Of a DNA stretch of 64,000 nucleotides, positions 20,423-63,950 are shown piece after piece (position 1 is the stretch's first letter; the number at the start of each line of letters is the position of its first letter). The notes beneath the pieces were generated by a model. That model ran no database searches and had not been told where the DNA came from. It was given only the letters and a program-made list of their open reading frames with translations. Source of the DNA: an uncultured delta proteobacterium (GTDB taxonomy: Bacteria > Desulfobacterota > WTBG01 > CAIYCZ01 > CAIRTM01); contig CAWDSQ010000007.1 of the NCBI GenBank assembly GCA_963804955.1, positions 64,001 to 128,000 on the forward strand, given 5' to 3'. Both the position numbers and the translations under genes were made by a program.

Positions 20423-20423
20423 C

Positions 20424-24001: not shown

Positions 24002-24376
24002 AATCCTTTGAAATCAGGGGATTTGCTTCCACAGCATTCTCAGATGCTGTAAGCTCATTTAGTAAAACAGCGATTTGAACACATGAAGTTTTTTTCATTT
24101 TTCTTTTGACGCAGACACAGTGCGTACGATACTATCCCCCAAATAAAACGGTGTCTGGAATTTTTTGCCTAAGAGAATATTGCAGGTTTCTTCATGCTGC
24201 GAGGGTTTGATGCTGGTTTTGCTATGACCGCCCATAATGTTTGAATCGGTTTTTAGCATTAAAAAATTGTTTGGCACAATTAACTTTCCAGTATGCGTAT
24301 TTTGCCTGTAAAATGCACACTCTAAGCACCATATTTGTTAAAAGTTGATAACGAAAACTATATTGTAAAAAATTTT

Positions 24377-25594: not shown

Positions 25595-25721
25595 ACAAAC
25601 CCCTGACAATAAAAAAGCTGTTGCAGATAGACCTCCAATGGTTGGCCCGTCTATGTGAGCGCTTTGCTTTGAAGTGGAATGCACCTCGCTTTAACTGGAG
25701 CTTTGTAAATAGCCCTAGAAA

Positions 25722-26363: not shown

Positions 26364-26364
26364 G

Positions 26365-27126: not shown

Positions 27127-27169
27127 TGCTTTTTATCTGACAGTTCCCAGTAAATGACACAGAAACGAG

Positions 27170-27391
27170 TTAGAACTCAACACTGCCCTCACCGATCAGT
27201 TTGATCAAATCCATTGGTGTATTGATGCTTTTAATATCAACCCCCTTGAATCTTTTCCCAAAGTTTTCATCGACAAAAGCAATAATAGACATGATGCCCA
27301 GAGAGTCGATGTCTAATTGAGTATCCAGGGTAATATCTGCAGTTAAATCAAGTGTTTCTTTTAAGCCATTTAAAAAGTCAGTATGTGTCAT
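27170..27391 (-). CDS. Acyl carrier protein
   Basis: 73 aa, acidic, IDSLGIMSIIAFVDENFG phosphopantetheine motif; lies between FabH and FabG. Confidence 0.88.
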   Translation of the reverse strand: MTHTDFLNGLKETLDLTADITLDTQLDIDSLGIMSIIAFVDENFGKRFKGVDIKSINTPMDLIKLIGEGSVEF

Positions 27392-27403
27392 AGTCTCATC
27401 GCA

Positions 27404-28402: not shown

Positions 28403-28558
28403 ATATTATTTTAATTATTGGTTAAAATTTAACAACTATTAAAAAACTCAGACTACTTAGATAAAAGTAAAGTTGCAGATTCTCAACAGACGAGATGCGC
28501 TTTTTCAGATGTCACAACAATGCAGCGATCCTACCCAACCTGCTATAATTTGCTTTTG

Positions 28559-28587
28559 AGCATATAAAGATTTTCAGGGTTAGTCAA
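28559..28587 (-). promoter_or_regulatory. Possible sigma-70 promoter of the FabH cassette
   Basis: Minus strand TTGACT-17 nt-TATGCT. Confidence 0.45.
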
Positions 28588-28689
28588 TAAATACTATGGT
28601 AACACTATGTTAGTTTAATTTCTGCTTAACGGACAGACCTATTAGCAGACTTACACCGCCAAGTTATCGCCCCCGCCGGGCCCACCATC

Positions 28690-28727
28690 ACAAAGAAGGC
28701 CGCTCCATTTGGAGCGGCCTTCTTTGT
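28690..28727 (-). terminator. Hairpin/terminator after the E3 gene
   Basis: 18-bp perfect inverted repeat ACAAAGAAGGCCGCTCCA / TGGAGCGGCCTTCTTTGT. Confidence 0.8.
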
Positions 28728-28750
28728 TTTTATAAAAAGCAAACTACGGG

Positions 28751-30487
28751 TTACTTCTTTTTGGGCATATGGATGGCTTTCTTGTCAACATCCAGCGCAG
28801 CTTCCATGATGCTCTCGGCAATCGTGGGATGCGCGTGAATGGTGTGGGCCATTTCTTCAAATGTTGCTTCCATCTGAATGGCAAGAGCTGCCTCATTGAT
28901 AAGGTCGGTGGCATGGGGTCCAAGTATTGCAACGCCCAGAACTTCGCCGTACTTCTTGTCGGCGATGATCTTCACCAGGCCGCCGGTCTCATTGATAACC
29001 AGTGCCTTGCCGCAGCCGACAAAGGGAAACCGGCCGATCTGCACGTCGCCGTACTTGGCCTTTGCTTCCTTCTCGGTCATGCCGACGCTTGCAACTTCCG
29101 GGCTGGTGTAGACAGCGCGGGGCACTGAGCGGTAGTTCATCTTGTGCTTTTTCCCCAGGACGTTCATTGCCGCTGTTTCACCTTCGGAGGTGGCTACATG
29201 GGCAAGCATGTAATTGCCGATGGCATCGCCGATGGCATAGATGCCGGCAACGCTGGTCTCAAGGTATTCATTGACCTTGATAAAGCCCTTTTCCATGGCA
29301 ACGCCGACCTTGTCAAGGCCGAGGCCTTCGGTATAGGGCGAACGGCCAACAGCCACGAGCACCAGATCGACTTCCTTCTGCTTGTCGCCGAAGGTCACGA
29401 GCTTCTTGCCGCCCTTGTCCTCGATCTTGCTGACGGACGTATTGGTAAGTATTTCAATGCCTTCCTTCTGTATCATAGCCGAGAATGACTTTGCGATCTC
29501 TTCATCTTCGGTCGGCAGAATCTGTGGCATCATTTCAACAACGGTCACTTCCACATCCATACGCTTCATCACCTGCGCGAACTCCATGCCGATAACGCCG
29601 CCGCCGATGATGAGAATGCTTTTCGGAAGCTTGTCAAGGGACAGTGCGCCGTCGGAATTGATAACGCCGGGAAGGTCAACGCCGGGGATGGGTACCTTGC
29701 TCGGCACGGAGCCGGTGGCGATGATGATCTTGTCGCACGCGATGGTCTCGCCGGTCTCTTTTACTTTCACGGTCTTGGCGTCAACGATTTCAGCCGTACC
29801 CTTGACAATCTTCATGCCGTGGCTTTTCAGAATGCCGCCGAGTCCGCCGACCAGCTGCTTCACAACAGTTGCCTTGCGTGCCATGACAGCAGGAAAGTCG
29901 ACGCTTGCGCCGGTCATGTTGATGCCGAATATTTTGGACTCTTTTGCCAGATGATACACTCCTGCCGACTGCAGGAGCGACTTGGTCGGGATGCAGCCGC
30001 GGTTGAGGCAGGTGCCGCCGAACTCATCCTTTTCAATAATGGTGACCTTGCCGCCGAGCTGGCAGATGCGGATTGCCGCAGGATAGCCGCCGGGGCCGCC
30101 GCCGATCACAACCACATGGGTGTCGGCAGCAGGGGCTGCCGGTGCTGCTGCGGCAGCGGGTGCGGCGGCAGCTGCCGGTGCTGCTGCGGCGGGGGTTGCG
30201 GCTGCTGCAGCAGGTGCTGCGCCGCCTGCGGCAACGCCGGCCAATTCGCCCTTGTCTGCCGCTATTATAGCGATAAGCTCAGCTACGGGGACTTCGCCTT
30301 CCGCGGGAACAACGATATGGAGATAGCCGTTAGCCGGGCTTTCCACTTCATAGGTGATTTTTTCTGTTTCAACAACAAGCAGAATCTCGCCCTGCTTTAC
30401 TTCTTCGCCTTCGGCCTTTTTCCACTCGGCAATCTTGCCGGTTTCCATGGTCAGCCCGAGCTTGGGCATGGTTAAATTGGTTGCCAT
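28751..30487 (-). CDS. lpdA: Dihydrolipoyl dehydrogenase (E3) with N-terminal lipoyl domain
   Basis: ETEKIT lipoyl motif, Ala/Pro linker, GGGPGGY, GGTCLNRGCIPTK, IHAHPTIAE. Confidence 0.96.
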   Translation of the reverse strand: MATNLTMPKLGLTMETGKIAEWKKAEGEEVKQGEILLVVETEKITYEVESPANGYLHIVVPAEGEVPVAELIAIIAADKGELAGVAAGGAAPAAAAATPAAAAPAAAAAPAAAAAPAAPAADTHVVVIGGGPGGYPAAIRICQLGGKVTIIEKDEFGGTCLNRGCIPTKSLLQSAGVYHLAKESKIFGINMTGASVDFPAVMARKATVVKQLVGGLGGILKSHGMKIVKGTAEIVDAKTVKVKETGETIACDKIIIATGSVPSKVPIPGVDLPGVINSDGALSLDKLPKSILIIGGGVIGMEFAQVMKRMDVEVTVVEMMPQILPTEDEEIAKSFSAMIQKEGIEILTNTSVSKIEDKGGKKLVTFGDKQKEVDLVLVAVGRSPYTEGLGLDKVGVAMEKGFIKVNEYLETSVAGIYAIGDAIGNYMLAHVATSEGETAAMNVLGKKHKMNYRSVPRAVYTSPEVASVGMTEKEAKAKYGDVQIGRFPFVGCGKALVINETGGLVKIIADKKYGEVLGVAILGPHATDLINEAALAIQMEATFEEMAHTIHAHPTIAESIMEAALDVDKKAIHMPKKK

Positions 30488-40156: not shown

Positions 40157-40660
40157 GTGAGGCACAGTCAGCAAAAAATCGAAGAAATAAAACGCCATAA
40201 AAACAAACCCGAGCAGCGCTTCCTGTGCGACCTTGCCCTGCGCGAGCAGGACCATATCGTTCTGGTCTATCATGCTTCATCTGCAGGCCGCATCGCCGAC
40301 ATCGACATCGCCCCCGGCTCCACAACCATTGCCCACTACTGGCAGGCAGGCGGTTATGTTCTCTGGCGCATGTTTGCAGCCGACCAAACGCTTGTCGGAA
40401 CGCTCTTTCATATCTGCGCTAATACTGATATACAGGAAACTAGCGTCAGCTATGATGATCTGATTTTAGATGTCTGGATTACCACGCAAGGGGTTGCGCG
40501 CGTGCTTGATGAGGATGAATTGGCCGATGCAATCAAGGCAGGGGTGGTCACAAATAACGAGCAGAGTTGTATTGAAAGACAGAGACAGATTATTCTTTCT
40601 GACTACGCTGCCATAATAGATCGAATACGGGATATTGAATCAGCTATTTTAAACCGGTAG
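40157..40660 (+). CDS. DUF402-like protein
   Basis: YDDLILDVWI..VLDEDELADA acidic motif. Confidence 0.72.
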   Translation: MRHSQQKIEEIKRHKNKPEQRFLCDLALREQDHIVLVYHASSAGRIADIDIAPGSTTIAHYWQAGGYVLWRMFAADQTLVGTLFHICANTDIQETSVSYDDLILDVWITTQGVARVLDEDELADAIKAGVVTNNEQSCIERQRQIILSDYAAIIDRIRDIESAILNR

Positions 40661-40728
40661 GGTGGATTTGCCAAGCACGTCCACAGTGTTTTCAAAATTT
40701 CGTGGACACACTTCGTTATTTTACCTAC
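40657..40728. repeat. Degenerate REP doublet
   Basis: GTAGGGTGG..GTCCAC / GTGGAC..CCTAC inverted arrangement. Confidence 0.5.
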
Positions 40729-40769
40729 GACAACCATGAACATTATTTCCCTTAGAAAGGACTGCTGCC

Positions 40770-41588
40770 ATGACTGGCGATACGCTGGGCGGCTCTACAG
40801 AATTTGAAGTCGTAAAAATCAGGGACGGTTCTGCCGAAACTTTCACGCAGGCCGTGGCGACCGAGGTGCCGTGCACAATCGTCATCAACGGCAAAGAGGC
40901 TGTTACCACCCTGATGACGCCCACTCACTTTAAGGAATTTGCCGTGGGGCATCTTTTTACCGCAGGCATTATCACGCGGGCCGAAGACATAGTCAGCTGC
41001 AGCTGCGACGAGATCAGGTGGCGCCTTGATGTGGAGACGCGGCGCGAGGTTGATCTTGATCTTTTAGGCAAGCGGGTCTACACCAGCGGCTGCGGCAAAG
41101 GGGTCATGTATGCCAATGTCATCGAGCTTTCGTCGCGCCACCCGCTGCCTTCAGGGTTCACGGTGCAGGCAGGCCATCTGAAAGCGGCCATACAGTGGCT
41201 CCTGTCAAGCTCGACACTTTTCCAGGCGACCCGCGGCGTGCACTCCGTGGCGCTGGGCCTGGGTGGCGCGCTGCCTGACATGCTTATCGACGATATCGGC
41301 CGCCACAATGCCGTAGACAAAATTATCGGGTACGGCCTGCTGCACGGCCTTGATTTTTCGCGCAGCATACTGCTCAGCACCGGCAGGACCTCCTCGGAGA
41401 TACTGCACAAGGCAAAGCGGGCGGAGATACCCATAGTGCTCTCACGCGGAGCGCCGACACACCAGACAATTCTTCTCTCGCGAGACATGGGCGTTACGGT
41501 AGCCGGCTTCAAACGGTCGGGAGACATTGTCGTCTACTCAAACTGGCAGCGTGTGCTTACCGATAGCGGCATCCCTTCAATGGAATGA
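40770..41588 (+). CDS. fdhD: Formate dehydrogenase accessory sulfurtransferase
   Basis: YTSGCG, TRGVHS, DIGRHNAVDKIIG, STGRTSSEI. Confidence 0.93.
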   Translation: MTGDTLGGSTEFEVVKIRDGSAETFTQAVATEVPCTIVINGKEAVTTLMTPTHFKEFAVGHLFTAGIITRAEDIVSCSCDEIRWRLDVETRREVDLDLLGKRVYTSGCGKGVMYANVIELSSRHPLPSGFTVQAGHLKAAIQWLLSSSTLFQATRGVHSVALGLGGALPDMLIDDIGRHNAVDKIIGYGLLHGLDFSRSILLSTGRTSSEILHKAKRAEIPIVLSRGAPTHQTILLSRDMGVTVAGFKRSGDIVVYSNWQRVLTDSGIPSME

Positions 41589-41703
41589 ATAAAAAATTTT
41601 TGGGTCGGTTCGCTAATTGCCCTGGGGTAAAACGTATACCAACTGATTAGATGGTGCGCGATGCGCACCCTTTCTTTCAAACCCGCAATTCGAGAGGAGC
41701 TTT

Positions 41704-43100
41704 ATGATCGCAACTTTAACATTCATGGGAGCAACAGGCACGGTTACCGGGTCGCGGTATCTTCTGAAAGCCGAAGGTAAAAAATACCTCATCGACTGCG
41801 GCCTGTTTCAGGGCTTGAAAGAAATACGGCAGCGCAACTGGGAACCCTTCCCTGTGCCGCCAAATGAAATCGACCGTGTACTGCTGACCCATGCCCATAT
41901 TGACCACTGCGGCTTTCTGCCACGCATTGTGCAGCAGGGTTTCAAAGGGCCGGTGCACTGCACCTTTCCCACGGCAGACATCTGCAGCCTCGTCCTCAGA
42001 GACAGCGCCTACCTTCAGGAAGAAGACGCGCGGTACGCAAACAAAAAAGGCTTCTCAAAGCACAAGCCCGCCCTGCCCCTCTATACTGTGCAGGATGCCG
42101 AAGATGCCATCAGCCTCTTTAAACCAGTACACTACGGCCAGGACCTCTTTTCTCAAATACCATGCGCGTCAAATTCAAGGACGCGGGGCATATTCTCGGC
42201 TCATCGTTTATCGACGTGAAGCTCATGCAGGCAGACAAGCCGACCCGCATCCTCTTCAGCGGTGACATCGGCAGCCCCGACCGCCCCATACTGCGCGACC
42301 CCACGCAGGTATTTGAAGTGGACTATCTCGTGCTTGAATCGACCTACGGCGACCGCACCCATGACCACGGCGACGACGCCCGCCGGGACGGGCTGGCCCG
42401 TATTATCAATGAAAGCGTAAAACGCGGCGGCATACTTATCATTCCGTCGTTTGCCGTGGAGCGCTCGCAGGAGCTGCTCTACTATATCCGAGAACTTGAG
42501 GACCAGAAACGCATTCCCGTGCTGCCGGTCTATCTTGATTCGCCCATGGCAGTGTCAGCCACTGAGATCTTTGAAAAATGGAAGCTTGTCTACGATATGG
42601 AAGCACGAATGCAGGAGCTCGACGGCAGGCATATCATGCAGACACAGATGCTGCATGTCGTGCGCGATGCCTCTGAGTCAAAGCTGCTGCACAATGTGAA
42701 GGGCCCGGCCATATTCATTTCCGCCAGCGGCATGCTTGAAGGCGGCCGCATACTGCATCACCTTGAGCACCGCCTTCCCTTCGCGGAAAACACTGTCCTC
42801 TTTGTCGGGTATCAGGCCGAGGGCACGCGCGGCAGGTCGATCCTCAACGGCAGCCCGACCATTAAGATTCACGGGCAGATGATTCCCGTGCACGCCAAAA
42901 TCGAGAATATCACCGGTTTCTCCGGCCATGCCGATTACAAGGAGATCCTTGCCTGGCTCATGGGCTTTAACCGGCCGCCGGTTAAAACCTTTATCGTCCA
43001 CGGTGAGCCTGATGCTGCTCAAGCCATGGCTAAAAACATCAGAACAACACTTGGCTGGGAGGTTGAAATACCGGAGTTCATGCAAACAGTTCAACTGTAG
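41704..43100 (+). CDS. Metallo-beta-lactamase / beta-CASP ribonuclease-like protein; frameshift in T run ~42150
   Basis: GTVTGS, DCGLFQG, THAHIDH, AGHILGS, SGDIG, ESTYGDR, FSGHAD, VHGE. One added T joins the two ORFs. Confidence 0.9.
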
Positions 43101-43121
43101 GAAGATAAAAACAATAATCAG

Positions 43122-43156
43122 AAGGCCGGGCTGCTGCACACAGCCCGGCCTTTTTT
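43122..43156 (+). terminator. Intrinsic terminator
   Basis: AAGGCCGGGCTG-7 nt-CAGCCCGGCCTT plus T run. Confidence 0.8.
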
Positions 43157-43230
43157 ATTGATGCAACTAAATCGTGACACGAACAAAAAACATACATAGC
43201 AGGCTGGAGTAAAACGGCTGCGTTGCCATC

Positions 43231-44106
43231 TCACTTGGCTTTTCGGCGCTCGTACATTTTGCAGATATCCGACAGTGCGGCAGCCATGGCGGGATTTGTC
43301 TTCATAATCTCCACGGTTTCATCAGGAGATTCCAGAAGCTTAAGATAGGCTGCCTCAACGGTATTTGTTTTCATCCGCAGAACCCCGAACAGCATATCGG
43401 CAATATCCACGCCTCTGATATTGGCATAAAAATTAGAGCTGTAATACAAGTCACACATCAGGCACAGCCGGGCTATTGCAGTGCCGGGCTTATGATGCTG
43501 GTGAATATATTTCGGGTTGAGCACATAAATTCTAATTTTTTTGATGCTGTGACAGGTTAAAAAATACATGTACCGGTTAAAATCCTTACCCTCGCCGAAA
43601 ACCTTTTCGGCAAGTTCACGCTGAGCCTTATTGAGGCCGCCGCTCTTAACGTTCTGCCAGTAGTAGCGCGTATCGATTTCAAAATAGGCAAATTCAGGAT
43701 CAAATTCTTTAAGTTTCAGAGAAAAAAGCCTGGTTCTATGCGTATGCCCCGTTTTAACCGAGTCGTAAACTTTTTTTACTTCATCTTTGCTGAGCCGGTA
43801 GTTTTCATTAGCCAGCATCTGCCGGCATGCTTCTTCCAGATTGTTGAAAATGGGGTTTGCTTCACGCCTGCCAAAATACAAAAAACCCTCTTTGCCGAGC
43901 TTTGTTTTTTCAACCGCATACATGCCGAAGTCTGCCGTGAAATAAAAATAATTCAAAAATGCAGGATCCGTGATGTTCTTATAGTCCATAGCCCGCTTGG
44001 CTGCTATGTCGGCAGATGTTGAAATAAAATCAGCATCAAAAAGGGCTGCATCCTTTTGAAATATCCCCCTGTTTTTCTTATTGGTAATAAGTTTAATTAT
44101 ATCCAT
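43231..44106 (-). CDS. Hypothetical protein resembling DPANN-archaeal C-type-lectin-fold (DGR variable protein-like) family
   Basis: Clean 291-aa ORF. Motifs FTADF..LYFGRRE.NPIF.N, YFEIDT, RIYVLNP.Y, AR.C....YSSNFYANIRGVD....FGV. The ORF is solid; the family call is from recalled similarity only. Confidence 0.6.
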   Translation of the reverse strand: MDIIKLITNKKNRGIFQKDAALFDADFISTSADIAAKRAMDYKNITDPAFLNYFYFTADFGMYAVEKTKLGKEGFLYFGRREANPIFNNLEEACRQMLANENYRLSKDEVKKVYDSVKTGHTHRTRLFSLKLKEFDPEFAYFEIDTRYYWQNVKSGGLNKAQRELAEKVFGEGKDFNRYMYFLTCHSIKKIRIYVLNPKYIHQHHKPGTAIARLCLMCDLYYSSNFYANIRGVDIADMLFGVLRMKTNTVEAAYLKLLESPDETVEIMKTNPAMAAALSDICKMYERRKAK

Positions 44107-44145
44107 GTCTTTTCACAAAAAAGCTGTTGTCTGGTTATAGTGCAT

Positions 44146-44234
44146 GGAGGGGTTGCCCAATCGTACCGGGCAGAGGCCAATGCTTGTGATGCCCGAATAA
44201 GGCATGCATCAATGCGCAGGCTAAATCCCCCTCC
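44146..44234 (-). ncRNA. Candidate structured leader RNA (three-way junction)
   Basis: Closing stem GGAGGGG/CCCCTCC encloses a long irregular hairpin (TGATGC..GCATCA) and TGCCCG-GTACGAT-TGGGCA. GC-rich island in an AT-rich leader. Confidence 0.3.
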
Positions 44235-44319
44235 CTCCAAAAAAAACTATTTGATCAACGTATACCGATTTAAGCAATACAACCAATCAACAAATCAATA
44301 TTTACCAGATAATAGTACA

Positions 44320-44337
44320 TTACAAATATTGTGCCAA
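44320..44337 (-). promoter_or_regulatory. Sigma-54-like promoter
   Basis: Minus strand TTGGCACAATATTTGT (-12 GT instead of GC). IHF-like TTTCGATTAGTTA at ~44365 and TGT-N10-ACA at 44408-44423. Confidence 0.5.
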
Positions 44338-44734
44338 TTTGTTTAAATAAATTAATCAAGCATTTTCGATTAGTTAAAAACATGCTGGAGTTAGTAACAA
44401 CTAAAAATGTGTCTCATGATACATAAATGCACAAGCAAAAGCGTATCAAAACCTTACTGTCCCTGTCTGTTTATATAATTGGATGGCCGTAGGGTTGAAG
44501 CTAAAAAAAGAGTGGCAAAGGCAATCGTTGAGGCTCTTAAATACACATCTCCTGCTTAAAAAAGCGGCACAGGCAGCCCAGCGGCGGATTTGGATGTGAT
44601 AGGGGTTTTCGATTTTTTAGTCGAGATCTGCGGAATTAAACTTACTCAATAATTGTGAGGGTAGAAGGTGATTTTATAGCAGCAAAGTTCTTCAACCAAA
44701 TTAAACGGCTTGAGTCTAGCCGGCTCTTCTTTGC

Positions 44735-45271
44735 TCACAACCACCAGAACAGGCATGGCGCCAGGAAAACAAACGAGCCGAGGATGGCTGCCATGTAAAA
44801 AAACAAAAGGGGTATACACACCAGAAACTGCGGAAATAATTCCGGACTAAAAATCATGTTCGGGATCAATAAAACCATATAGCCAAAGATAACAAAGGCC
44901 TTGTGCATATTTTGCTCGAGCAGCATAATCGCTTGATTGCACTGAGCCTCAAATACTTCCACCTGTGCCAATCGATCCTGAACCGCGCGGACCCGCCCGC
45001 GTGCACCATATGCCTGGTCGGCAGTAATATGCATGGCCTGCAGATTTCCGGACCTGATAAGTTGTACGAGATCGCGCAGGCTTTTTTTGGCATCTGCCTG
45101 TAAACTCAGGGCAACATCAGCAGTGCAGGTGGTATCCCGTTCCGCACAGGCGGCATAGGCCTCCAGAAGCGTTATACTGTCAGAGCTGATATCATAAAGC
45201 GTTTTCTCCTGTGCAGGCGATGCAGACGGAAGCGCCAGAACGCACAAAAACAGCAGCATCATTTTTTTCAT
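44735..45271 (-). CDS. Array protein B1: exported helical protein with C-terminal hydrophobic hairpin ending PCLFWWL
   Basis: Signal peptide ending SPA-QEKTL; paralog of 46717-47256; SD AAGGGG. Confidence 0.82.
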   Translation of the reverse strand: MKKMMLLFLCVLALPSASPAQEKTLYDISSDSITLLEAYAACAERDTTCTADVALSLQADAKKSLRDLVQLIRSGNLQAMHITADQAYGARGRVRAVQDRLAQVEVFEAQCNQAIMLLEQNMHKAFVIFGYMVLLIPNMIFSPELFPQFLVCIPLLFFYMAAILGSFVFLAPCLFWWL

Positions 45272-45327
45272 AAATTGTACCCCCTTGAAAACAAGCGATT
45301 GCATTTCGGCTCTTCATCAGTCCAAAA

Positions 45328-46623
45328 TCACATTAATGCAGCCGGAACTGGCAGCAAGGTCACGTTATCTGTAGACCATTGCTCTTTCCAGGCAATCACG
45401 CTGCCATCTTCAGCCAGTGCCGAATACCCGTCTATAAATTCAGAATTGCTATATTCTAAAAAGCCGTGGTTGTCATCCTCACCGGCATCAAAGGCGTTCA
45501 CGGCAATAATGTTGTTAAACTCATGATGAAAAACCAGAACCCCCGAATGCACGCCGCCATACCATTGATAATATCCCCATACAACTATTGACCCATCCTG
45601 CTTCAGCGCAATATTATTGCTGTCTCCCGAAGCAGCCGCTGTTGCCCGAAGCCTTCCTGCGCGAATCGGAAGAGGGACATCCCTCCACCCGGATATATAA
45701 TTTATATGCCTCTGCACGACATTCCCGTCAGACTGCACCGCCACATCGAAATTGCTCCCCAGGGATATTGAAACTGCATCATTAACAGGGGTCATATAGC
45801 TGTGGGGCCATTTCGCTATCGTGCCGTCCGCCTTCACCGCCGCGCATCGACCTTCTCCTGCGCCGATGCTGACCACATCGCTGATAGCGGCAGGAACATG
45901 CATCGGCTCTTCATTCATAAAACCCCACCCGACAAGATTGCCGTCTGCTTTTAAAGCAAGAAAATGATGATAGCCGGCGGCAACCGCCACCACATCAGCA
46001 AGCCCGTCAGGAACAGGAAGCTCCTGAGGGCAGGAAAGCGCATCACATGACCACACCACCACCGTCCCGTTGTCTTTTAGCGCAACGCTGTAGTCATTGC
46101 TTTTTGCTATGGCGGTTACATTTCTGAGCCCCTCAGGGGTTTCTAGTAGTTTGCCGTCTTCAAAGCTCCATTCCACAACCGTACCGTCGGCCTTGAGCGC
46201 AAGGCTGCCATGAGTAGTTGAAGCAAGCGCTATGGCTTTTTCAGTCTTGAAAACCCGGAATTTTTTGGCCACTTCCTTCATTGGCCCTTGTTCAACAGCC
46301 GCAGTAATGGTGATCAATTTCTCGCCTGGATTTTCAGGGTTCACCTGCCCAATCCAGCGCCAGGTGCCGTTATCGGTTGCCAGTAGTTCCTGTTCTGCCT
46401 GGCCGCCGATTTCGCTCAAATCAGCCGTAACCGTAACCGGCGCAAGAGCCTCTGGCGCCTGCCGCCAGATCACCCTCACATCGCAGGTCTGCCCAACCAA
46501 CAGACGCCCCATAAGAAATATGCGATTGCGCTGCATCGAGAGGTCAAGGGGCGGCTTGCATCCTGCCGCTGCAAGCAGCCCTAGTACCGCCAGTCCGATA
46601 CATAATTTTTGTATTTTTTTCAT
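45328..46623 (-). CDS. Array protein A1: lipoprotein with RCC1-like beta-propeller repeats
   Basis: Lipobox LAAAGC; VTVTADLSEIGG domain; repeats ALKADGTVVEW, ALKDNGTVVVW, ALKADGNLVGW, ALKQDGSIVVW. Confidence 0.88.
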   Translation of the reverse strand: MKKIQKLCIGLAVLGLLAAAGCKPPLDLSMQRNRIFLMGRLLVGQTCDVRVIWRQAPEALAPVTVTADLSEIGGQAEQELLATDNGTWRWIGQVNPENPGEKLITITAAVEQGPMKEVAKKFRVFKTEKAIALASTTHGSLALKADGTVVEWSFEDGKLLETPEGLRNVTAIAKSNDYSVALKDNGTVVVWSCDALSCPQELPVPDGLADVVAVAAGYHHFLALKADGNLVGWGFMNEEPMHVPAAISDVVSIGAGEGRCAAVKADGTIAKWPHSYMTPVNDAVSISLGSNFDVAVQSDGNVVQRHINYISGWRDVPLPIRAGRLRATAAASGDSNNIALKQDGSIVVWGYYQWYGGVHSGVLVFHHEFNNIIAVNAFDAGEDDNHGFLEYSNSEFIDGYSALAEDGSVIAWKEQWSTDNVTLLPVPAALM

Positions 46624-46648
46624 TCATTACCCTTTTCAATAATATTCA

Positions 46649-46676
46649 GCAGGGGCATGGCATGCCGTGCCACTAC
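46649..46676. repeat. REP-like palindrome between cassette units
   Basis: Minus strand GTAGTGGCACGGCATGCCATGCCCCTGC. Confidence 0.6.
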
Positions 46677-46716
46677 AACTGATTTACCTCAACCATTCCA
46701 ATACAGCCAATCCCGC

Positions 46717-47256
46717 TCACAGCCACCAGAAAAGGCACGTTGGCGATAAAATAATCGTCATGAGGAAGGACCAAAGGGTTGAGCCTATAAGAACCATAAG
46801 TTCGATCATAAATCTTACAGGGCCTTCATATAAAATAACAAGATAAAGCAACAGGGGGTTCAAAAAGCTCGCCAGATACTGCAAATTACCGAGCAGTTGA
46901 ACAAAATAATGAATTCCCGCATTGCAGCTCTCATCGGCAATTGCAATATGCGCAAGCTGCTCCCGCACAACCCTGGCGCGAACGCTCAGCGCCGAAGCCT
47001 GACCGGGGGTGAGCATTATGCGGCTGCGGTCGCCCGACTTTACCAGCCCCACAAAATCCCGCAGGCCGTTTACAGCTCCTGCCTTTATGGCCAGCATATC
47101 TTCGGAGGTGCAGGCGCTCTCCCGGTCCGCACAGGCTGCGTACGCCTCAACCAGAAAAAACATGTCCTGGCTGATATCGTTGAGTGTTTTTTCCTGTGCC
47201 CGGACTGCGGCAGGCAGCAGCGCGATACATAAGACCAATAGTATGGTTTTTTTCAT
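46717..47256 (-). CDS. Array protein B2 (paralog of B1)
   Basis: AQEKTL.DIS, EAYAACA.R...CT, LRD.V.L..SG, CN, and TCLFWWL; SD GGAGG. Confidence 0.85.
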   Translation of the reverse strand: MKKTILLVLCIALLPAAVRAQEKTLNDISQDMFFLVEAYAACADRESACTSEDMLAIKAGAVNGLRDFVGLVKSGDRSRIMLTPGQASALSVRARVVREQLAHIAIADESCNAGIHYFVQLLGNLQYLASFLNPLLLYLVILYEGPVRFMIELMVLIGSTLWSFLMTIILSPTCLFWWL

Positions 47257-47284
47257 TTCACACCTCCCCTGGGTGCATTCTTTA

Positions 47285-48579
47285 TCATTGTAATTCCTCC
47301 GGCACTGTTAGCTCATGCTGGCCATCCCACCACTCTTCCCATGCCAGAACGCTGCCGTCCGCGGTCAGGGCCATGCTGTTGGGCGGCGTAAAACCGCACA
47401 GGCCATCGGCTATGGCAATTATGTTTGCCAGCCTTTCATGGCTGACATAATACAAACCCGCATACTGGGTCGCGCGCCACCAGAGCATGACCGTGCCGTC
47501 TTCCTGTAGCGCCATCCAGTGACTCCCACCAGCAACTACAGCTTTTGCCCTCAAGTCGCCTGCCCGGCGAGGCAGGCTGTCACCCCGGCCGCCCCACATG
47601 ACTGCGCTGCCATTGTCTGTTAAGGCAAGAGCATTCTCCCACGCATCAATAGCCACCACGTTTTCAAGGCCTTCCGGCGCATCACAATAGTCCTCCGGAT
47701 ACGCCCAGAGATCCTCAGTTCTTACTGCAAGCCATGAAGCTACCGTACCATCGGCTTTCAGCGCATGTGCGCAGGCATTACCCGCCGCCAGTGCAACAAC
47801 ATCGGTGAGCCCTTGCGGTATGTTCAGCCCGAGGCTATCATTATCGCCCCAGGCTGCTACTGTGCCATCAGCTTTCAGCGCAAGGTTATATATGGCTGCG
47901 GCGGCTATGGCTACTATATCCGTAAGATTATCCGGCACATCGAAACTTTCATCACTGCTATTGCCCCATGCCGCTACCGTTCCGTCGGCTTTCAGCGCAA
48001 GGTTATGATAATAACCTGCAGCTATGGCCACAACATTGCCGAGACCTTCAGAGGCATAAAACGCCTCTTGATTCTGATCACATTTCACATACGAACCAGC
48101 CGTCCCGACCTGCCAGTCAACCACGGTGCCGTCAGCTTTCAATGCAAGGCTTTGGGCCGCACCGCAATCAATAGCTACTGCCTTTGCTGCCGCATTATGC
48201 ACCTGCACCTGCTTTTCGCTCGGGTATTCTTCATCATCCGCGTCCAGCGCGGTAATGCGCAGCGTCTTCTCGCCGAACGCCGGGGCGCAACCTTGCCGCT
48301 CCACCGCCAGATGCTTTGGTTATCTGCGGTCAGTTCCTGTGCCGCATCTCCGCCGATTTCACTTAAATCCGCCGTCACCGTTACCGGCACGGGGTCATTA
48401 GCCCCGGCGCGCCAAATCAGGCGCACATCGCAGGCCTGGCCCGACAGAAGCCGGCCGAGCAGAAATATGCGGCTGCGGTGCAACGACAGCGGCTCTTGTG
48501 GCTCAGGTTTTTTACATGCTGTTGCCGCCAGCAGTCCCAGCGCCGCAAAAGATACCAATACTTTTTGTAATGTCTTCAT
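47285..48579 (-). CDS. Array protein A2: RCC1-repeat lipoprotein, 1-bp deletion ~48282
   Basis: Lipobox LAATAC; VTVTADLSEIGG. ORFs 48175-48603 and 47285-48304 join into an A1 paralog ending VPEELQ. Confidence 0.82.
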
Positions 48580-48649
48580 GTATACCCCCGTACAGTTTGT
48601 CATAAAAGCATTTTAAGAGCATCCAGTCGTGTCCCAATGCTGTGCGCCC

Positions 48650-48708
48650 GCTCATAACCACCAGAACAGGCATGGCGCCAGGAAAACAAACGAGCCGAGG
48701 ATGGCTGC
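48650..48708. repeat. 59-bp direct repeat of 44733-44791 (B1 3' end)
   Basis: 58/59 identical by direct comparison; the single difference is a synonymous Leu codon change (TTG/TTA). Confidence 0.92.
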
Positions 48709-48997
48709 TATAATATTTCCCCATTAGCACCTCCTCTGTGTGATTGGATGTGAAAGTATTTTTACACTACATTCTCTGCATGCTCAGACCGTGCTGTGCT
48801 TTGGTCATGCACAATACTGCTCTGAGCCCCTACAGCAAAGATGCCGGTTTCTCTACAACCCTACATGGCAATACAAGCTCCCGGATGCCCACGGGAAGAG
48901 TAATACCAAGCCAACGCATAGGCACAATACATATAGCCCCTATCAATCATGCCACTCTAGCCATTCACGCTCACACATAAAAAAAATCGGGGCACCG

Positions 48998-49068
48998 GAA
49001 CCGCACAGGTCTGCCCTACAAGCAGCCCCAGCGCAACACTACCATCAAATTTTTTATACTGTTTTTAT
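48998..49068 (-). pseudogene. Decayed N-terminal remnant of an A-type lipoprotein gene
   Basis: SD, then ATA-AAA-ACA-GTA-TAA-AAA-ATT, and ALGLL fused directly to VGQTC.V. Confidence 0.55.
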
Positions 49069-49128
49069 GCATTCCCCTTTACACGGGTCCATTCATCATG
49101 AATACAATGCGCCGGGCCCCCGCCGCTT

Positions 49129-50340
49129 TCAATACTCATTATTCATTACCGGATTTTTTTGCAGTTCAGTAATATCAAGCTTATACAAAATATCCCAGCC
49201 GAAGGAGCCCGGTTCCCCCCCTATTCCGAAAAGCCACAAATTTGAGCCGGATAAAGCAATACTGTAAGGAGTTGAAAGCGGGCCATTTCCGGTTCTCCCG
49301 CCGGTGGGCGGATATATGAGACTTACGATATTTCCATCCATATCAATCTTATAAAGCATCTTTCCATATATACTGTCGGTAACCCAGAAGTATGTTCCGT
49401 CAAAAGCGATGCCATAGGGATTATCAAAAGGCAGGGGAATTGCCGTGTCGCAGAAACCATTCATATCGCATTTATTGATGCTCCTGGCTTGTCCGGCCAC
49501 GTACCAAACAGTACCATCCTTCACGAAAATACCCCTGGGGTCGCCGGGCGCACGAAAGGACGCAACCGGTTCGCCTGTTTTGGTAAACTTGTAAATGCTT
49601 TCGGAATGGAATTCGGTATACCAGATAAAGTCCCCATCTGCCGCAATACCGCGCACCTCATGATTCTCAGTCAGGGGGTAGCGTAACGATCGGTTCGGGC
49701 AAAAAATAACCAGCGTCCTCGGGAGCAGCAATGCCTGCTATAATCCGTTTTCCTGTGGAATTGTCGATGCCGAGCGTCCACAGCACCCCACCGTCAAAGG
49801 TTCCCACCGGAGTTACTGATTTCCAGTGCTGCACAACAGGCAGACTGGCAAGGGGCGGAGACCAGCCCATATCTGTTTCCTGGAGAAAAGGAATTTTACG
49901 ATTAAATATGGGTCGCAGGCGGACAAAGTCCGGCAGGAATCCGGCCATTCCCACAGCTTTCATCGTCAGGGCGGGCTCTTTCAGATTTACTCTACCCCAG
50001 ACGAAATACAGCGCGCTCCCTATGAGAGATTTAGGATTTTGACTAGAAACCCGTAATAGCGCATGTCAGCGTTCAAATCTGACCTGCTTATACTAAATCC
50101 ATACACCTCATCGAATACATACGTGCTGGTTGACCGCCAGTACATTTTGCCGCCGTAAAAGCCGACTTCCTCCCTGGCATACCATTCACTGTAATAAGAC
50201 CCATCATAAAAGCCCCAGAGCAAACCGGTGAGCCCATCGCTGGAATATGACCAGTCTGCGGCATCGGCAGGGTTGAATGGCAGAAGTACAACAAGAGTGA
50301 GGCAGGATAAAAGAATTATTTTTGCGCGTGTTGTAAGCAT
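49129..50340 (-). CDS. Secreted protein with C-terminal beta-propeller repeats (NHL/Vgb-like); two frameshifts (~50025, ~49678)
   Basis: Signal peptide ending ADA-A; RGIAADGDFIWYTE, PRGIFVKDGTVW, PYGIAFDGTYFWVTD, PYSIALSGSNLW. Three consecutive ORFs join. Confidence 0.65.
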
Positions 50341-50558
50341 GTAGTCCCCTTTTTAATTTTACCCCGAAGAGGCATCCGCCGCAGCGGACATCGTGAAACT
50401 ATAACTGCGTCACCTCAATCGTTCCGGAACAGACAATCGTTCTCACAGCCGGAAAAAAAGAACCGGAAAAACAAGGCTCGGCAGCAAACAAGGTGCAGCA
50501 AATAAAGATTTTAACGTAGTGCATGCCCCCCATTACAAGCTGCAATACAAAAATACGG

Positions 50559-51056
50559 CTAGGCTATAACCGTATGCATCAACTGCAGCGCAAGCGCGAC
50601 CAGCATTCTTGCGCTATTGCATGACCCATCATGCATTTCTATTTTTGAAAACCGGCCTCGTACTTCTTCGGACCAAAAACGCAGGGCTTTCTCTTCTTCG
50701 GCAGTTAAAACCAGGGCACGCATATCGCCCGACTTTATAAGACTCTTAAGATCCTGAAGGGTCTTTTCAGCATTGGCTTTTAATGCCTTGCCATCCTCTT
50801 CAGTACAGGCAATATCATGATGTGCGCATGCCGTAAGCGTCTCTGCAAGGATAAGCGTCCGGGCGCTGATCTCGTACAGCCTGTTCTCATGCGCTTGCAT
50901 TTTGCAACTCACCCGCACCCGGCAGGACGTGTTCGCATAAACCGGCTCGGTGAAAGACAGTTCGTTTATCCGCGGCCAGGGCTGATCTTTAAACACCGCA
51001 GCTGTCAAAAGCCCCAACGCTGCAACTGTCAGTAAAATTTTATGAACGGTTTTCAC
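50559..51056 (-). CDS. Chimeric A/B array protein (A-type N-terminus fused to B-type body), possibly truncated
   Basis: SD GAGGAG + GTG; KTVHKILL..ALGLLTAAVFK..SCRVRV, then HENRLYEIS..ACAHHDIACT..LQDL..LIKSGD..SCN. Confidence 0.6.
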   Translation of the reverse strand: MKTVHKILLTVAALGLLTAAVFKDQPWPRINELSFTEPVYANTSCRVRVSCKMQAHENRLYEISARTLILAETLTACAHHDIACTEEDGKALKANAEKTLQDLKSLIKSGDMRALVLTAEEEKALRFWSEEVRGRFSKIEMHDGSCNSARMLVALALQLMHTVIA

Positions 51057-51696
51057 GCTCTCCTCACTGTATGCTTTACTGCCCAGGGGTATTCGCCGGG
51101 GCTGAGACCGCACCCTGCAACTGCAAACATTGCTGCATAAATATATCTTTAGCCGTATTACTTTGAGTAAAGAAGTGCTGTTCCCGTTTTCCCCTTGCAC
51201 GTTCCCCCTGCAAGGGCAGGCAAAAAACTAAACTAACACTATTCAAATTAACGCAAGACGCGTACCAAAAAAATTAACTTGCTCTGAAAAAATCCAGAAC
51301 ATAATAAAAAGTATTGAAAAACAGATGGTTGAAAAAAATAAAAAAATAGCGGCTGCTTTGGCTCCATAAGCGGTAAAATACAATTGGCTGATTTCAGCCA
51401 GCAAAAGGGGTTGAAATAAATTTCATTGGTTGAATCCAGCCAATTACAGGTGATATGTATCGCCGGGGTTGACGGATTGAACTGCACATAACATGCCTGT
51501 TCCCTGCAATGCTTCAGATATGCCTGCCCGAATAATTTCTTGAGAAAAATGCGGCGCAAAGGTATATTTTGTGGAGAAACAGCCCAGGGTAATTCCCGGC
51601 TGACAGGAGCAAACTAAAAAAAAGAGCTCACGGGGGCCTTTGAGGGCCAACCCAGCTTCTTGAGCTTTATGCACAATATCATGACAGGACGATTGC

Positions 51697-52110
51697 ATGC
51701 CGATCTATGAATACTACTGCACGCCGTGCCACACCATTTTCAGCTTTCTGTCACGCACAGCAAACGTAAGCAGGCAGCCCGCCTGCCCTCGCTGCGGCGG
51801 TGAGATTCGCAAACAGGTTTCATCATTTGCCTTCTCCCAAAAGATGAGGGGCACTGAAAGTTTGCCCTTTTCGACACAGCAGGCAGAAGAAGGCGTTAAA
51901 AAGCTCAAAAGCGAAATCGACCGACTGAAGTCAGAGGAAAGCCCGCAGCGCGCCGCGCAGTTCAAAAAAAATTTCGAACGCTGGTCGGGCGTGAAGCTCG
52001 ACCACTCGGCTGGCTCCCTGCGCGGCGTTGAGCTTGCGCCTGAAAAAGGAGAGCCCCCTGAAGAAGAAGGCCCGCCTCCGGAGCGCGATGATACGATTTA
52101 TGATTTATAA
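51697..52110 (+). CDS. FmdB-family zinc-ribbon protein
   Basis: MPIYEYYCTPC..CPRCG..SSFAF. Confidence 0.88.
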   Translation: MPIYEYYCTPCHTIFSFLSRTANVSRQPACPRCGGEIRKQVSSFAFSQKMRGTESLPFSTQQAEEGVKKLKSEIDRLKSEESPQRAAQFKKNFERWSGVKLDHSAGSLRGVELAPEKGEPPEEEGPPPERDDTIYDL

Positions 52111-52118
52111 ACAAGCAG

Positions 52119-52310
52119 TTGGATTGGTTAATCTGGTTATATTAGTTTAATTGGTTTTATTGGTTGATTTGTTGAAACCGGGCTTAAATCATCTATGCTC
52201 ACACGGACGATCTTCAGAGACATTGCTGGTTGTCAATTGATGGTTGTTCATTCATCTAACGAGCATTGACCTTTGACTATTGACCACTGACCAATAAACC
52301 ATTGACCATT
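52119..52310. repeat. Short degenerate tandem repeats (ATTGGTT-containing ~9-mers, then CATTGAC 7-mers)
   Basis: 52119-52170 and 52264-52310, read directly. Confidence 0.65.
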
Positions 52311-52316
52311 CCCTGC

Positions 52317-53168
52317 ATGATGACCCTTGACCAGCTTCGCACAAACAAAGTGGGCCTGGTTCTCTCATCAGGCTTTTTCGGCTTCTACGCGCACGCGGGC
52401 TGCCTGTGCGCCCTTTCCGAAATGGGCATTCATCCGATGGGATATGCCGGCAGCAGCGCCGGCGCCATCATAGCCGCAATGGGGGCCTCGGGCATGGCCT
52501 GCGAAAAAATCCGCGAGCGCCTGTTCCCCCTGAAAAAAAAAGACTTCTGGGACCCTGAGCCATGGTACCGCGTGGCGCTGCACGGACTTCGCCTGTTTCG
52601 CGGGTGGCATGGCTACCTGAACGGCGACAGGTTCGCAACACTGCTGCAGCGCATGCTGCCCGTAGCGACTTTTGAAGAGCTGCGCTGCCCCTGCGTTATA
52701 ACTACCATTAATTTAAACACTAAAAAACGCGAGTGGCGCACTGCCGGAAATCTTGCTGATGCGGTGCAGGCATCCTGCACCGTGCCCTGGCTGTTCAAGT
52801 TCAAAATCATGGACGACGCCCTGCATGTTGACGGAGGATTTGCCGACAAGGCGCCGGTCGAGGCACTTGCCCGGCACATGCAGCCCGATGTGCTCATCGT
52901 GCACTACCTGAAATCAAGCAACCTGCGCGGCGATGATCAGTCGTTCCTCAACCGGCGATTCTCAGCCGGCAAGGCCAAAACTCTTGCCGTCACCATCGGC
53001 CGCCACGAGCACTACCTCACGCAGAAGCGGCTTGTCGAGCAGATGGGCATCCCTGTGCTTGAAATAGCCCCCGAGCTTCCTTCTGTCTCCCCTGCTCATA
53101 TTGACCGCGGCCCTGCGGCTTTTGAGCAAGCACGACAGCAGACACTGCTGTTATTGAACAGCCTATAA
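52317..53168 (+). CDS. Patatin-like phospholipase
   Basis: LVLSSGFFGFYAHAG, GSSAG nucleophile elbow, DGG motif. Confidence 0.9.
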   Translation: MMTLDQLRTNKVGLVLSSGFFGFYAHAGCLCALSEMGIHPMGYAGSSAGAIIAAMGASGMACEKIRERLFPLKKKDFWDPEPWYRVALHGLRLFRGWHGYLNGDRFATLLQRMLPVATFEELRCPCVITTINLNTKKREWRTAGNLADAVQASCTVPWLFKFKIMDDALHVDGGFADKAPVEALARHMQPDVLIVHYLKSSNLRGDDQSFLNRRFSAGKAKTLAVTIGRHEHYLTQKRLVEQMGIPVLEIAPELPSVSPAHIDRGPAAFEQARQQTLLLLNSL

Positions 53169-62100: not shown

Positions 62101-63950
62101 ATACCTCCTGTGTTTTCTATGCCGAGTTCCTTTAATTTTGCCTCTGTCAGCATTCCGTCAGCCTTCCAGCCCCGGGCACGGTAATAATCCTCAAGCATGA
62201 TGCCGACCGGCGGCAGATGGTCGGCAGCAGGGCCGCAGCCCCGCATGCTGGCCGGTAAAGCGTTCATGCAGCCTGTCGGCAGAAGCAGCGCAGCCCTGCC
62301 TGAGATTCACTACATGCTTTACCGCATAGCTGCGCTCGCCTGCAAGCAGAAGGGATGTAAAGTCATGCTCCATGCCAGTGGCAAGGTTCAGCCATTCCAC
62401 CACCTGCCGCGCCGTAACGCCGGTGAATCCGTCTGCTGAGTAATACTGGGCATAACCGGCATGGGAAAATGCGCACAGCACGAGCGAGTTGAGCACTGTG
62501 GCATAATTCTGTCCCCGCGCAACGGTCCGGCCCGTGCCCTCAACAGCAAACCGCACCGCCTGCATGTCCATAAGGTCAAAGCCCTCGATGCCCGGATCTG
62601 CTGCGCCCGTATGGTTTGCCCCGCGCGTATCGGTGGCATAGGCAAGCGCCAGAAAATTATGCGCCCGCGGATCATGGGCAGGCGCCTCAAGGCCCTTAAC
62701 CTCTATGGCGAAGCGCTCCGCACCCCCGCCGATCAGGCTGGCAGCCCCGCGTACACCTTCTGCAAGCACAGCGCCGAAGCCCTGACGCGTGCAGATTTTT
62801 TCAAGCATGGCAAGGGCGGCCTGCCCGTTGCCGAAAGACATATCAATGCCGTCGGTATCCTTCAGCGTAATCAGTCCTTCGGCAAAGCATTCCATGGCAA
62901 AGGAAATGACACCACCGGCAGATATGCTGTCAACTCCATAGCGGTTGCACAGGTCATAGGCTTTCTGCACGGTAGCTCATGTCGGTTATGCCGCACTGAG
63001 ATCCCAGAGGAGCGATAGACTCCCATACATTCAAACGCCTGCCGCCATGATCGACATTGGACTCAACGCACCCCGTGGGGCATCCTGCACATTGATAGGG
63101 GCGTTCATGAAAAGCATGCTCCCTGATCTCCCGAGCACCGCGTTCTCGAACCCCGTCAAATCGCCGTCACGCCAGTTATTGATACCGTGCCGGCCATCCC
63201 GAACGAACATGGTAAAGACCCTTGAGGCTTTTGCCGCACAGTGCTCGGGGGTTTTTACCATCTGCGGCAAAAAATCACGTATGGAACGGGCGAGCTTTTC
63301 GGCATGGGCAACTCCAACCGGATTGCTGCCGGCCACAGCGATTGCCTTCAGATTCTTTGCGCCCATGACTGCGCCCATACCGCATCTGCCTGCAGCGCGC
63401 GCTGCAGGACCATCGCTCATGACAGAGGAAAACCTCACAAGGTTCTCACCCGCCGGCCCGATGGCCGACACCTTGAAGGCATCGCCGTAGAGCTTCCGTA
63501 TAGTCGCTTCAGTCTCAACCGTATCTGCGCCCTGTAGAAAAGCTGCATCTTCGATTGCTGCCGTTCCGTCAGAGACCCTGAGAAAAACAAGCCTGTCTGC
63601 CTTGCCGGTTATGATAAGACCGTCGATGCCCGCTTTTTTAAGCGCACTGCCCCAGGTGCCGCCGGCAAATGCCTCTCCCCATATGCCGGTCAGGGGCGAA
63701 AGGGCCGCAACACAGTGCCTGCCGCTCCAGGGCACCATGGTGCCGGTGAGTGGTCCGGTCATAAAAAAAGAGGCGCTTCGGGAGCAAAGGGGTCCGTTTT
63801 CACCGGAACCATTTCGTCCATAAGCGCCGCAGCAAACCCCACACCGCCAATATGCCGCTCAGCCATCAGCGTCGGTGTTTCACGCACCGCAACCGTCCGG
63901 CTTCCAAGATCAACCTGCAGAAGCCTTCCTGTGTATCCTTTGTATGTCAT
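62097..63950 (-). CDS. Tungsten-dependent aldehyde:ferredoxin oxidoreductase family protein; four apparent frameshifts
   Basis: GYTGRLLQVDL, SPLTG, IGPAGEN, RAAGRCGMGAVMGAKNLKAI, CAGCPTGC, GVDSISAG, LAEG, HDPR, and EDYYRARGW. Stop overlaps the AKR start (ATGA). Confidence 0.88.

Follow-up and report, generated by a model that had tools for sequence, protein, structure and literature searches.

A variable island of two-gene cassettes for a BLIP-II-like propeller lipoprotein and a small membrane protein in an uncultured delta proteobacterium

Organization of the island

A 64,000-nucleotide (nt) stretch from the genome of an uncultured delta proteobacterium (assembly GCA_963804955.1, contig CAWDSQ010000007.1; here genome G000, contig C7, and hereafter "the window") carries a tandem array of genes on the minus strand, along 44.7-51.1 kb. 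The list of open reading frames (ORFs) and protein alignments confirmed that the array is built from two families, a propeller lipoprotein (A) and a small membrane protein (B). A preliminary description of this DNA had proposed a recombining array of A+B cassettes, and its inventory proved essentially right when compared with the ORFs, repeats and alignments. The gaps from A to B measure 28-56 nt. The locus was set against a second contig of the same assembly (C31, locus L001), three congeners (G001; G003, with loci L014, L015 and L016; and G004, contig C274, locus L050) and a genome from another family of the same order (G017, contig C37, locus L019). All coordinates given without a locus or contig name are positions of the window, in which the following features were found (aa, amino acids; Ig, immunoglobulin; radical-SAM, radical S-adenosylmethionine):

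44735-45271, minus: B1 gene, 178 aa from the conserved ATG, in an ORF reaching 45304 (ORF, alignments)
45328-46623, minus: A1 gene, 431 aa, with lipobox, Ig-like stalk and a predicted seven-blade RCC1/BLIP-II-type propeller (ORF, Pfam)
46240-46554, minus: Ig-like stalk of A1, residues about 24-128 (beta-sandwich model)
46717-47256, minus: B2 gene, 179 aa (ORF; G003 ortholog 94% identical)
47285-48579, minus: A2 gene, split by a 1-nt deletion (ORFs 47285-48304 and 48175-48603 in overlapping frames)
48650-48711, minus: displaced B tail, 62 nt, the last ~20 codons and stop (repeat finding, tblastn)
48709-48901, minus: remnant of a B12-type radical-SAM gene, its start MLMGKYY and upstream region (88% identical to C31 11239-11430)
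48987-49083, minus: decayed A-type start, weak (resemblance to the A1 5′ region, and a peptide)
49129-50340, minus: secreted beta-propeller gene, Vgb_lyase/DUF5050-like, in three pieces (Pfam; 490 aa in G003)
50559-51056, minus: "chimera" gene, 165 aa, with a B-type helical ectodomain, an A-like signal peptide and no hydrophobic tail (alignments)
43231-44106, minus: 291-aa gene of no family, bounding the island on one side (92-99% identical in C31, G003 and G001)
51697-52110, plus: Zn_ribbon_8 gene, the flank on the other side (Pfam; it flanks the site in G003 and G017 too)

Several of these features are displaced or broken pieces. The B tail that had been noted near 48724 is real: repeat finding matched the 62 nt at 48650-48711 with 97% identity to the B1 tail (44733-44794). 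This tail is joined to the first seven codons of the radical-SAM gene (48709-48730), whose body is gone from the window; an intact 555-aa copy is found on contig C31. Further along, the decayed A stub of the preliminary description does bear some resemblance to an A gene, albeit a weak one (78 nt at 49011-49083 match the 5′ part of A1 with 73% identity, and the peptide ALGLLVGQTCAVPV is encoded there). The next gene had correctly been recognized as encoding a propeller, but what was described is one of three pieces (49129-49731, 49667-49963, and 50020-50340) of what G003 carries as one intact gene of 490 aa; a 98-aa ORF and a 106-aa ORF with a signal peptide are parts of the same gene. Finally, the supposed A/B chimera holds for its B part, which aligns with B1 over 109 aa at 35% identity (E = 5e-23), but its A part comes down to a resemblance over 19 aa of the signal peptide (E = 3e-4), and this A-like signal peptide has no lipobox Cys in the window. 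The chimera is kept at the far end of the island in three haplotypes (window 50559-51056, L001 13926-14423, and L014 14133-14630).

The flank opposite the 291-aa gene is a Zn-ribbon/patatin pair, and neither the 291-aa gene nor the chimera had a match in NCBIfam, PADLOC or PHROGs. The 93-nt spacer between B2 and A1 (46624-46716), which the preliminary description had taken for a repetitive extragenic palindrome, folds no better than shuffled sequences (z = 0.29) and has no second copy in the genome. An organization into integron cassettes was rejected on the same grounds, as the spacer has no attC-like fold and is present in a single copy. No integrase gene was found among the window ORFs by a Pfam scan, and the window's island contains no mobility or defence gene. 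No conserved element upstream of the A genes was seen by eye. Scans for promoters and terminators were uninformative (11 promoter-like sites vs 9.4 expected, 20 terminator-like sites vs 10.1).

Protein A

Paralogs of A keep a common scaffold, as had been described, consisting of a lipobox (G21/C22), a block around VTVTADLSEIGG, and seven blade motifs of the type ALKxDGTVxxW. In A1, the lipobox reads LLAAAGC followed by K, and G21 and C22 are at least 90% conserved among 30 sequences (read by eye); A is predicted to be lipid-anchored. The conserved block spans about 100 aa and reads …TCDVRVIWR…VTVTADLSEIGG…WRW.GQV.P in the alignments. The stalk (residues 24-128) was modeled as a seven-strand beta-sandwich with a predicted local distance difference test score (pLDDT) of 82, and a fold search with this model returned generic beta-sandwich matches only (Ig, macroglobulin, and arrestin-like; E about 1e-3). 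The stalk is present in 31 proteins, all of which carry RCC1 repeats (PF13540).

The propeller part matches Pfam family RCC1_2 (PF13540) with 57.9 bits in A1 and 75.4 bits in the C-terminal part of A2 (cut-off 22), and seven ALKxDGTVxxW-type motifs were counted by eye on the A1 sequence. A profile of 30 A proteins found BLIP-II with E-values of 7.7e-42 to 1.4e-39; HERC2, RCC1, and UVR8 followed at 1e-21 to 1e-12, i.e. about 20 orders weaker. The single sequence of A1 gave no match at 1e-10 against the PDB. Judged by sequence similarity, the A propeller is a member of the RCC1/BLIP-II group and nearer to BLIP-II than to eukaryotic RCC1. Its blade cores correspond to conserved columns of the alignment; insertions and other indels gather in the loop after each blade's W. 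No match for A was found in NCBIfam, PADLOC or PHROGs.

Protein B

The B proteins share a signal peptide, three Cys that are conserved throughout, and a hydrophobic C-terminus whose last residues are C-[LF]-F-W-W-L (CLFWWL in B1); a shared Cys pattern and the CLFWWL sequence had also been pointed out in the preliminary description. An AlphaFold2 (AF2) model of B (pLDDT 90, from a 37-row alignment) is all-helical: a signal helix is followed by a bundle of three helices (residues 25-101) and by two long helices (106-139 and 143-169) that form a hairpin. A hydrophobic stretch extends up to the C-terminus in 12 of 12 aligned B proteins. According to this model, B would be anchored in the membrane by the hairpin and expose the bundle in the periplasm.

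The B proteins make up an orphan family, without a name or a known fold relative. B belongs to no Pfam, NCBIfam, PADLOC or PHROGs family and is rare (47 clusters in a collection of 5.8 billion, and 44 representatives in one of 1.84 billion proteins). No A-B fusion protein occurred among the 44 representatives, which were searched without a length filter. The ESM Atlas gave no usable match for B, Foldseek with the B model against the PDB returned nothing at E <= 0.001, and the B profile found nothing under E = 0.02 among PDB sequences. A wide VIA-align search with residues 104-178 (the bundle alone was not searched) yielded only generic helical hairpins with Z <= 9.8, below the level meaningful for helical proteins. 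Pore-forming toxins appeared in the fold searches of B with E above 1 or with a root-mean-square deviation of 26 A.

Island haplotypes and turnover

Comparison of the site between close relatives revealed five different states:

Window: chimera, broken propeller gene, A stub, radical-SAM start fused to B tail, A2, B2, A1, B1
C31: chimera, 788-aa repeat protein, radical-SAM gene, A3, B3, B1-like tail; flanks 96-97% identical
G003: chimera, 490-aa propeller gene, radical-SAM gene, two cassettes
G001: two cassettes, different from the others
G004: empty site, no cassette

Thus, the island differs in all four haplotypes and is missing from the fifth genome, despite flanks that are 92-99% identical, and the array turnover that the preliminary description had expected is borne out. 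One of the G003 cassettes is the ortholog of A2/B2 (93-94% identical) and adjoins the 291-aa gene. In G004 (L050, 1-1591), about 510 nt separate the start of the 291-aa gene from a LOG-family gene, which is 93% identical to the LOG gene beyond the far side of the island in G003; the B profile had no match in this 85%-complete genome. We also noted that the window shows no such LOG gene in the interval from the chimera to the Zn-ribbon gene.

Contig C31 (L001 1-16005, 16 kb) is collinear with window positions 40171-52513, and differs in the island content and at its left end; it represents either a co-binned strain or a second copy. A displaced B tail is found there as well (7217-7393). Public contigs documented further arrangements. 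The contig of run X2 spans A1B1 without A2B2, that of X1 spans A2B2 and leaves the window right after B2, and that of X3 diverges from the window exactly at 48711, which is the junction of the B tail and the radical-SAM start.

Two other genes of the island were seen outside the window. The radical-SAM gene, of the B12-binding type, lies inside the island at L001 9593-11260 and L014 10244-12136 and has weak similarity to radical-SAM enzymes of ribosomally synthesized and post-translationally modified peptides and of hopanoids. At L001 11578-13944, a secreted protein of 788 aa with many repeats of the type WGSSxxDVFAVG…HYDGxSWS is encoded; it had no Pfam, NCBIfam, PADLOC or PHROG match, and it has its signal-peptide region in common with the broken propeller gene of the window.

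Mosaic evolution and selection

To describe how the parts of the two proteins vary together, 11 A-B pairs were compared, eight of them taken from loci and three matched only by contigs of equal size. The mean pairwise identity was 65% for the A stalk, 47% for the A propeller, 47% for the B bundle, and 22% for the B tail. Divergence of the propeller was correlated with that of the B bundle (Mantel rho = 0.79, p = 0.0005) and of the B tail (rho = 0.62, p = 0.0005); the corresponding values for stalk and propeller were rho = 0.19 and p = 0.15.

The stalk has a history of its own. A1 and the first A gene of G001 share 97% aa identity across 75 stalk columns, and their DNA is 83-96% identical at codons ~30-100, falling to ~40-60% thereafter, with a sharp breakpoint at about codon 100. 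The synonymous divergence (dS) between the two genes amounts to 0.40 for the stalk block, close to the 0.62 of the flank gene, and has reached saturation (2.2) elsewhere in the gene. In the propeller tree, A1 is nearest to P0104 (57%), away from its partners in the stalk tree. The propeller tree rejects a clade that is backed by the stalk tree, and was named from that tree, with a log-likelihood difference of 129.8 (approximately unbiased test, p = 0.00017). Since propeller and B diverge together and the stalk does not follow them, the exchanged unit is the propeller plus B, with breakpoints at the stalk edges.

Ratios of nonsynonymous to synonymous divergence (dN/dS) were determined for orthologous cassettes. 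Between the window and G003, dN/dS was 0.28 for A2 (C-terminal part) and 0.21 for B2; between G003 and G001, it was 0.21 for A and 0.27 for B. Flank genes ranged from 0.02 to 0.16. Orthologous cassettes are therefore under purifying selection and are functional genes, and the term "diversifying" used in the preliminary description is not supported in the sense of positive selection. The diversity consists of old, deeply diverged alleles that are shuffled, without detectable gene-wide positive selection. As a separate observation, the chimera gene evolves fast though it is conserved across three haplotypes (dN/dS 0.82 for the window vs G003 and 0.60 for the window vs C31).

Distribution of the A-B pair

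The B profile matched in 4 of 61 related genomes, namely G000, two of the four congeners, and the one genome from the other family; it likewise matched 4 of the 21 genomes of the order. A search of genome contigs with a 7-row B alignment found metagenome-assembled genomes of uncultured delta proteobacteria only, and the same search of metagenome contigs found nothing. Only a few uncultured genomes carry the family, and its host is an uncultured bacterium of the sulfate-reducer type.

Within the genus, A and B form a conserved two-gene module: an A gene lies directly upstream on the same strand for all nine B genes with a visible upstream neighbour, and the tenth B gene (L018) is located at a contig start, where the upstream side is not visible. 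A-B adjacency thus holds for the genus; outside it, relatives of B occur without A, and the situation that the preliminary description had named as speaking against its proposal is therefore found there and not within the genus. One group of such relatives is a second B subfamily of 165-170 aa ending in CSLGFIV. Its gene is convergent with pagL-lpxK in all five metagenome loci with context (L037, L040, and L043-L045), which are close relatives of each other. On contig C37 of G017 (L019), a CSLGFIV-type gene is likewise convergent with pagL-lpxK, followed by kdtA and an msbA-like gene. The pagL-lpxK setting hints at an older housekeeping role of the B fold in the envelope.

G003 has two extra A-B pairs, which are located among genes encoding Lcl_C, BspA-type leucine-rich repeat (LRR_5)/TSP_3, Flg_new_2, and tyrosine-recombinase proteins. 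Integrase-family genes adjoin both extra pairs. At L015, the integrase region is duplicated (3855-5068 and 7592-8820), with 300-nt repeats that are 95-100% identical. At L016, a 167-nt repeat (3829-3995 and 6183-6349; 80% identity) brackets the A-B pair and holds a hairpin that resembles a terminator, not attC.

Comparison with known systems

In the family libraries and open-access papers searched, neither B nor its pairing with A has been described, and genetically the locus is like polymorphic toxin loci. The preliminary description had likewise not recognized the pair, in agreement with the lack of matches in Pfam (for B), NCBIfam, PADLOC, and PHROGs, and no description of a small membrane protein that partners a BLIP-II/RCC1 lipoprotein was found in the open-access literature searched. 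Four known systems share some of its features, as excerpts of the cited papers describe them.

The closest solved relative of the A propeller in the profile search is BLIP-II, the beta-lactamase inhibitory protein II of Streptomyces (PDB 1jtd, 3qhy, and 9t9p), a secreted and very tight protein binder of the RCC1/BLIP-II propeller group (PMC9218822). It forms a seven-blade RCC1-type propeller, as is predicted for A. Unlike A, it is a freely secreted protein of about 280 aa, without lipobox, Ig-like stalk, paired membrane-protein gene or cassette polymorphism, and nothing in our data ties A to beta-lactamases.

Polymorphic toxin-immunity loci, including those of the myxobacterial SitA lipoprotein toxins, likewise combine a constant N-terminal and a variable C-terminal part with a small downstream cognate gene, recombination, and displaced remnants (PMC8546572; PMC3482391). 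The constant part of SitA is described as a lipobox and an "escort domain" (PMC8546572). In contrast to these systems, a binding propeller takes the place of the nuclease or other toxin as the variable part of A; export and membrane anchoring, rather than a cytoplasmic location, are predicted for the downstream protein, and no delivery system is linked. Moreover, according to PMC3482391, no beta-propeller had been found among immunity proteins.

The self-recognition proteins IdsD and IdsE of Proteus mirabilis are encoded by adjacent genes, and their variable subdomains give allele-restricted binding (PMC4471559). This is the same kind of logic as the one we propose for A-B, where binding is a prediction. 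A and B are not related to the Ids proteins, and the type VI export that Ids requires (PMC3735182) has no counterpart linked to the A-B locus. In systems of the BtuG-BtuB type, a beta-propeller lipoprotein at the surface and the membrane protein of the adjacent gene make up a stable complex (PMC10404256). There, the partner is a TonB-dependent barrel and the ligand vitamin B12, whereas here a small helical B is found in polymorphic pairs.

Possible roles of the cassettes

We tentatively favor, at somewhat less than an even chance, the explanation that the locus represents a hypervariable, accessory island in the chromosome of an uncultured deltaproteobacterial genus, built of two-gene envelope modules that encode matched A-B pairs. 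A would be a lipoprotein in which a constant Ig-like stalk carries a variable seven-blade propeller. B would be exported by its signal peptide and display a Cys-bearing helical bundle in the periplasm, held by a hydrophobic C-terminal hairpin that ends in the invariant Cys followed by LFWWL. The propeller may act as a BLIP-II-like tight binder with the bundle of its own B as the ligand, and each cassette would then provide a lock and its matching key, both tethered to the membrane. The set of such pairs could serve as a strain-specific determinant of envelope identity or exclusion. Between close relatives, cassettes are gained and lost, and displaced B tails are left behind. The functional steps of this model are much less certain than the anatomy of the locus.

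Several points weigh against it. Neighbouring genes that are exchanged jointly co-vary by linkage alone, so that the Mantel result is no proof of contact, and the 11 pairs were drawn from few and related genomes. Whole-gene dN/dS values of 0.2-0.3 give no sign of positive selection. Library scans found no toxin domain, secretion system or regulator in the island. Lipobox, signal peptide, and topology were assigned solely by eye, from hydropathy, and from AF2 helices. Finally, B is found without A in the CSLGFIV subfamily, where it is a solo gene, and in G017, where one B-like gene is preceded by a gene for an Lcl_C/TSP_3 protein.

Among the alternatives, an ordinary lineage-specific expansion of paralogs is unlikely but has to be taken seriously. 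It would involve an old duplication followed by neutral gain, loss, and occasional gene conversion, with neither allele-specific pairing nor selection for diversity. Gene-wide purifying selection (dN/dS 0.21-0.28), the deep divergence of the paralogs with saturated dS, and the lack of toxin, defence or mobility genes in the window's island are what such an expansion would lead one to expect. It accounts less readily for four haplotypes that all have distinct cassette sets and a fifth genome that is empty between flanks of 92-99% identity, for displaced B tails that are 97% identical, for the sharp and statistically supported mosaic breakpoint within A, and for the concentration of the variable propeller positions in loops. 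Even if this ordinary explanation is correct, the site is a hot spot of cassette exchange with mapped breakpoints.

Rather unlikely is a surface adhesin or capture module, in which A is exposed at the surface, its propeller binds an external ligand (polymer, cell or phage), B helps in export, anchoring or folding, and variation follows the external ligands and not B. Such a role fits the surroundings of the two extra pairs of G003 (Lcl_C, BspA-type LRR, TSP_3, Flg_new_2, and tyrosine-recombinase genes) and the further secreted propeller proteins in the window's island. It also fits the B-like gene of G017, whose position after an Lcl_C/TSP_3 protein indicates that B-type proteins can partner other secreted binders. 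However, a generic helper is expected neither to show a divergence that follows that of the propeller (rho = 0.79) nor to be so variable (mean identity 47% in the bundle and 22% in the tail), and no surface-export machinery is encoded nearby.

A more specific form of the matched-pair model is distinctly unlikely as it stands, namely a bacterial identity system without a toxin, in which each propeller binds its own B only and the matched set decides on the compatibility of envelopes. It could serve in kin recognition, in exclusion or in resistance to an envelope-targeting agent, with units reshuffled behind the constant stalk.

Least probable, and in our view very doubtful, is a toxin-immunity pair in which B damages membranes and A is its BLIP-II-like lipoprotein inhibitor, or the reverse: the constant N-terminal and variable C-terminal parts, the co-varying small downstream gene, and the displaced 3′ remnants do recall polymorphic toxins as described in excerpts of PMC3482391 and PMC8546572, and BLIP-II is an inhibitor protein (PMC9218822), but the toxin suggested in the preliminary description has no counterpart in A, B or the chimera (no toxin family in Pfam, NCBIfam, PADLOC or PHROGs), B, with a signal peptide for export and a hydrophobic part that keeps it anchored for good, would act on its producer, the fold searches of B gave generic helical hairpins only, and no linked delivery system (type V, VI or VII secretion, or outer-membrane exchange) was found by a Pfam scan of the 50 window ORFs, the rest of the genome not being searched.

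If the A-B pairs of the favored model are allele-specific, the island would constitute a compact natural library of orthogonal protein pairs on a BLIP-II-like scaffold, and it would extend the genetics of a constant handle with a swappable head and partner to a setting outside toxin systems. It would also bear on the ways in which uncultured bacteria of sediments distinguish between strains or diversify their envelopes.

Frameshifts and neighbouring genes

In A2, one nt is missing from a C-run at about 48281-48286, which breaks the reading frame. This base is present in the G003 ortholog and in contigs of both public runs that cover the site (X1 and X3). One break of the 490-aa propeller gene likewise lies in a homopolymer, and the contig of run X4 is 2 nt shorter at 50040. 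Two genes outside the island showed similar breaks: compared with contig C31, an indel of 1 nt in a T-run divides a gene of the beta-CASP/metallo-beta-lactamase fold (41704-43100), and an aldehyde:ferredoxin oxidoreductase gene (62191-63762) is present as two ORFs. Taken together, these four cases suggest homopolymer errors, and the frameshifts of the window are probably due to the assembly and not to decay.

On contig C31, a SIR2-like gene (L001 2188-3099; Pfam SIR2_2, PADLOC SIR2 with E = 1.8e-9) is located between DUF402 and FdhD and has no counterpart at the same place in the window (40660-40770). Elsewhere in the window, the region 13000-29000 is low in guanine and cytosine (29-46%) and contains glycosyltransferases, Wzy_C, PGA_cap, DegT aminotransferase, and Polysacc_synt genes; it looks like a variable surface-polysaccharide island.

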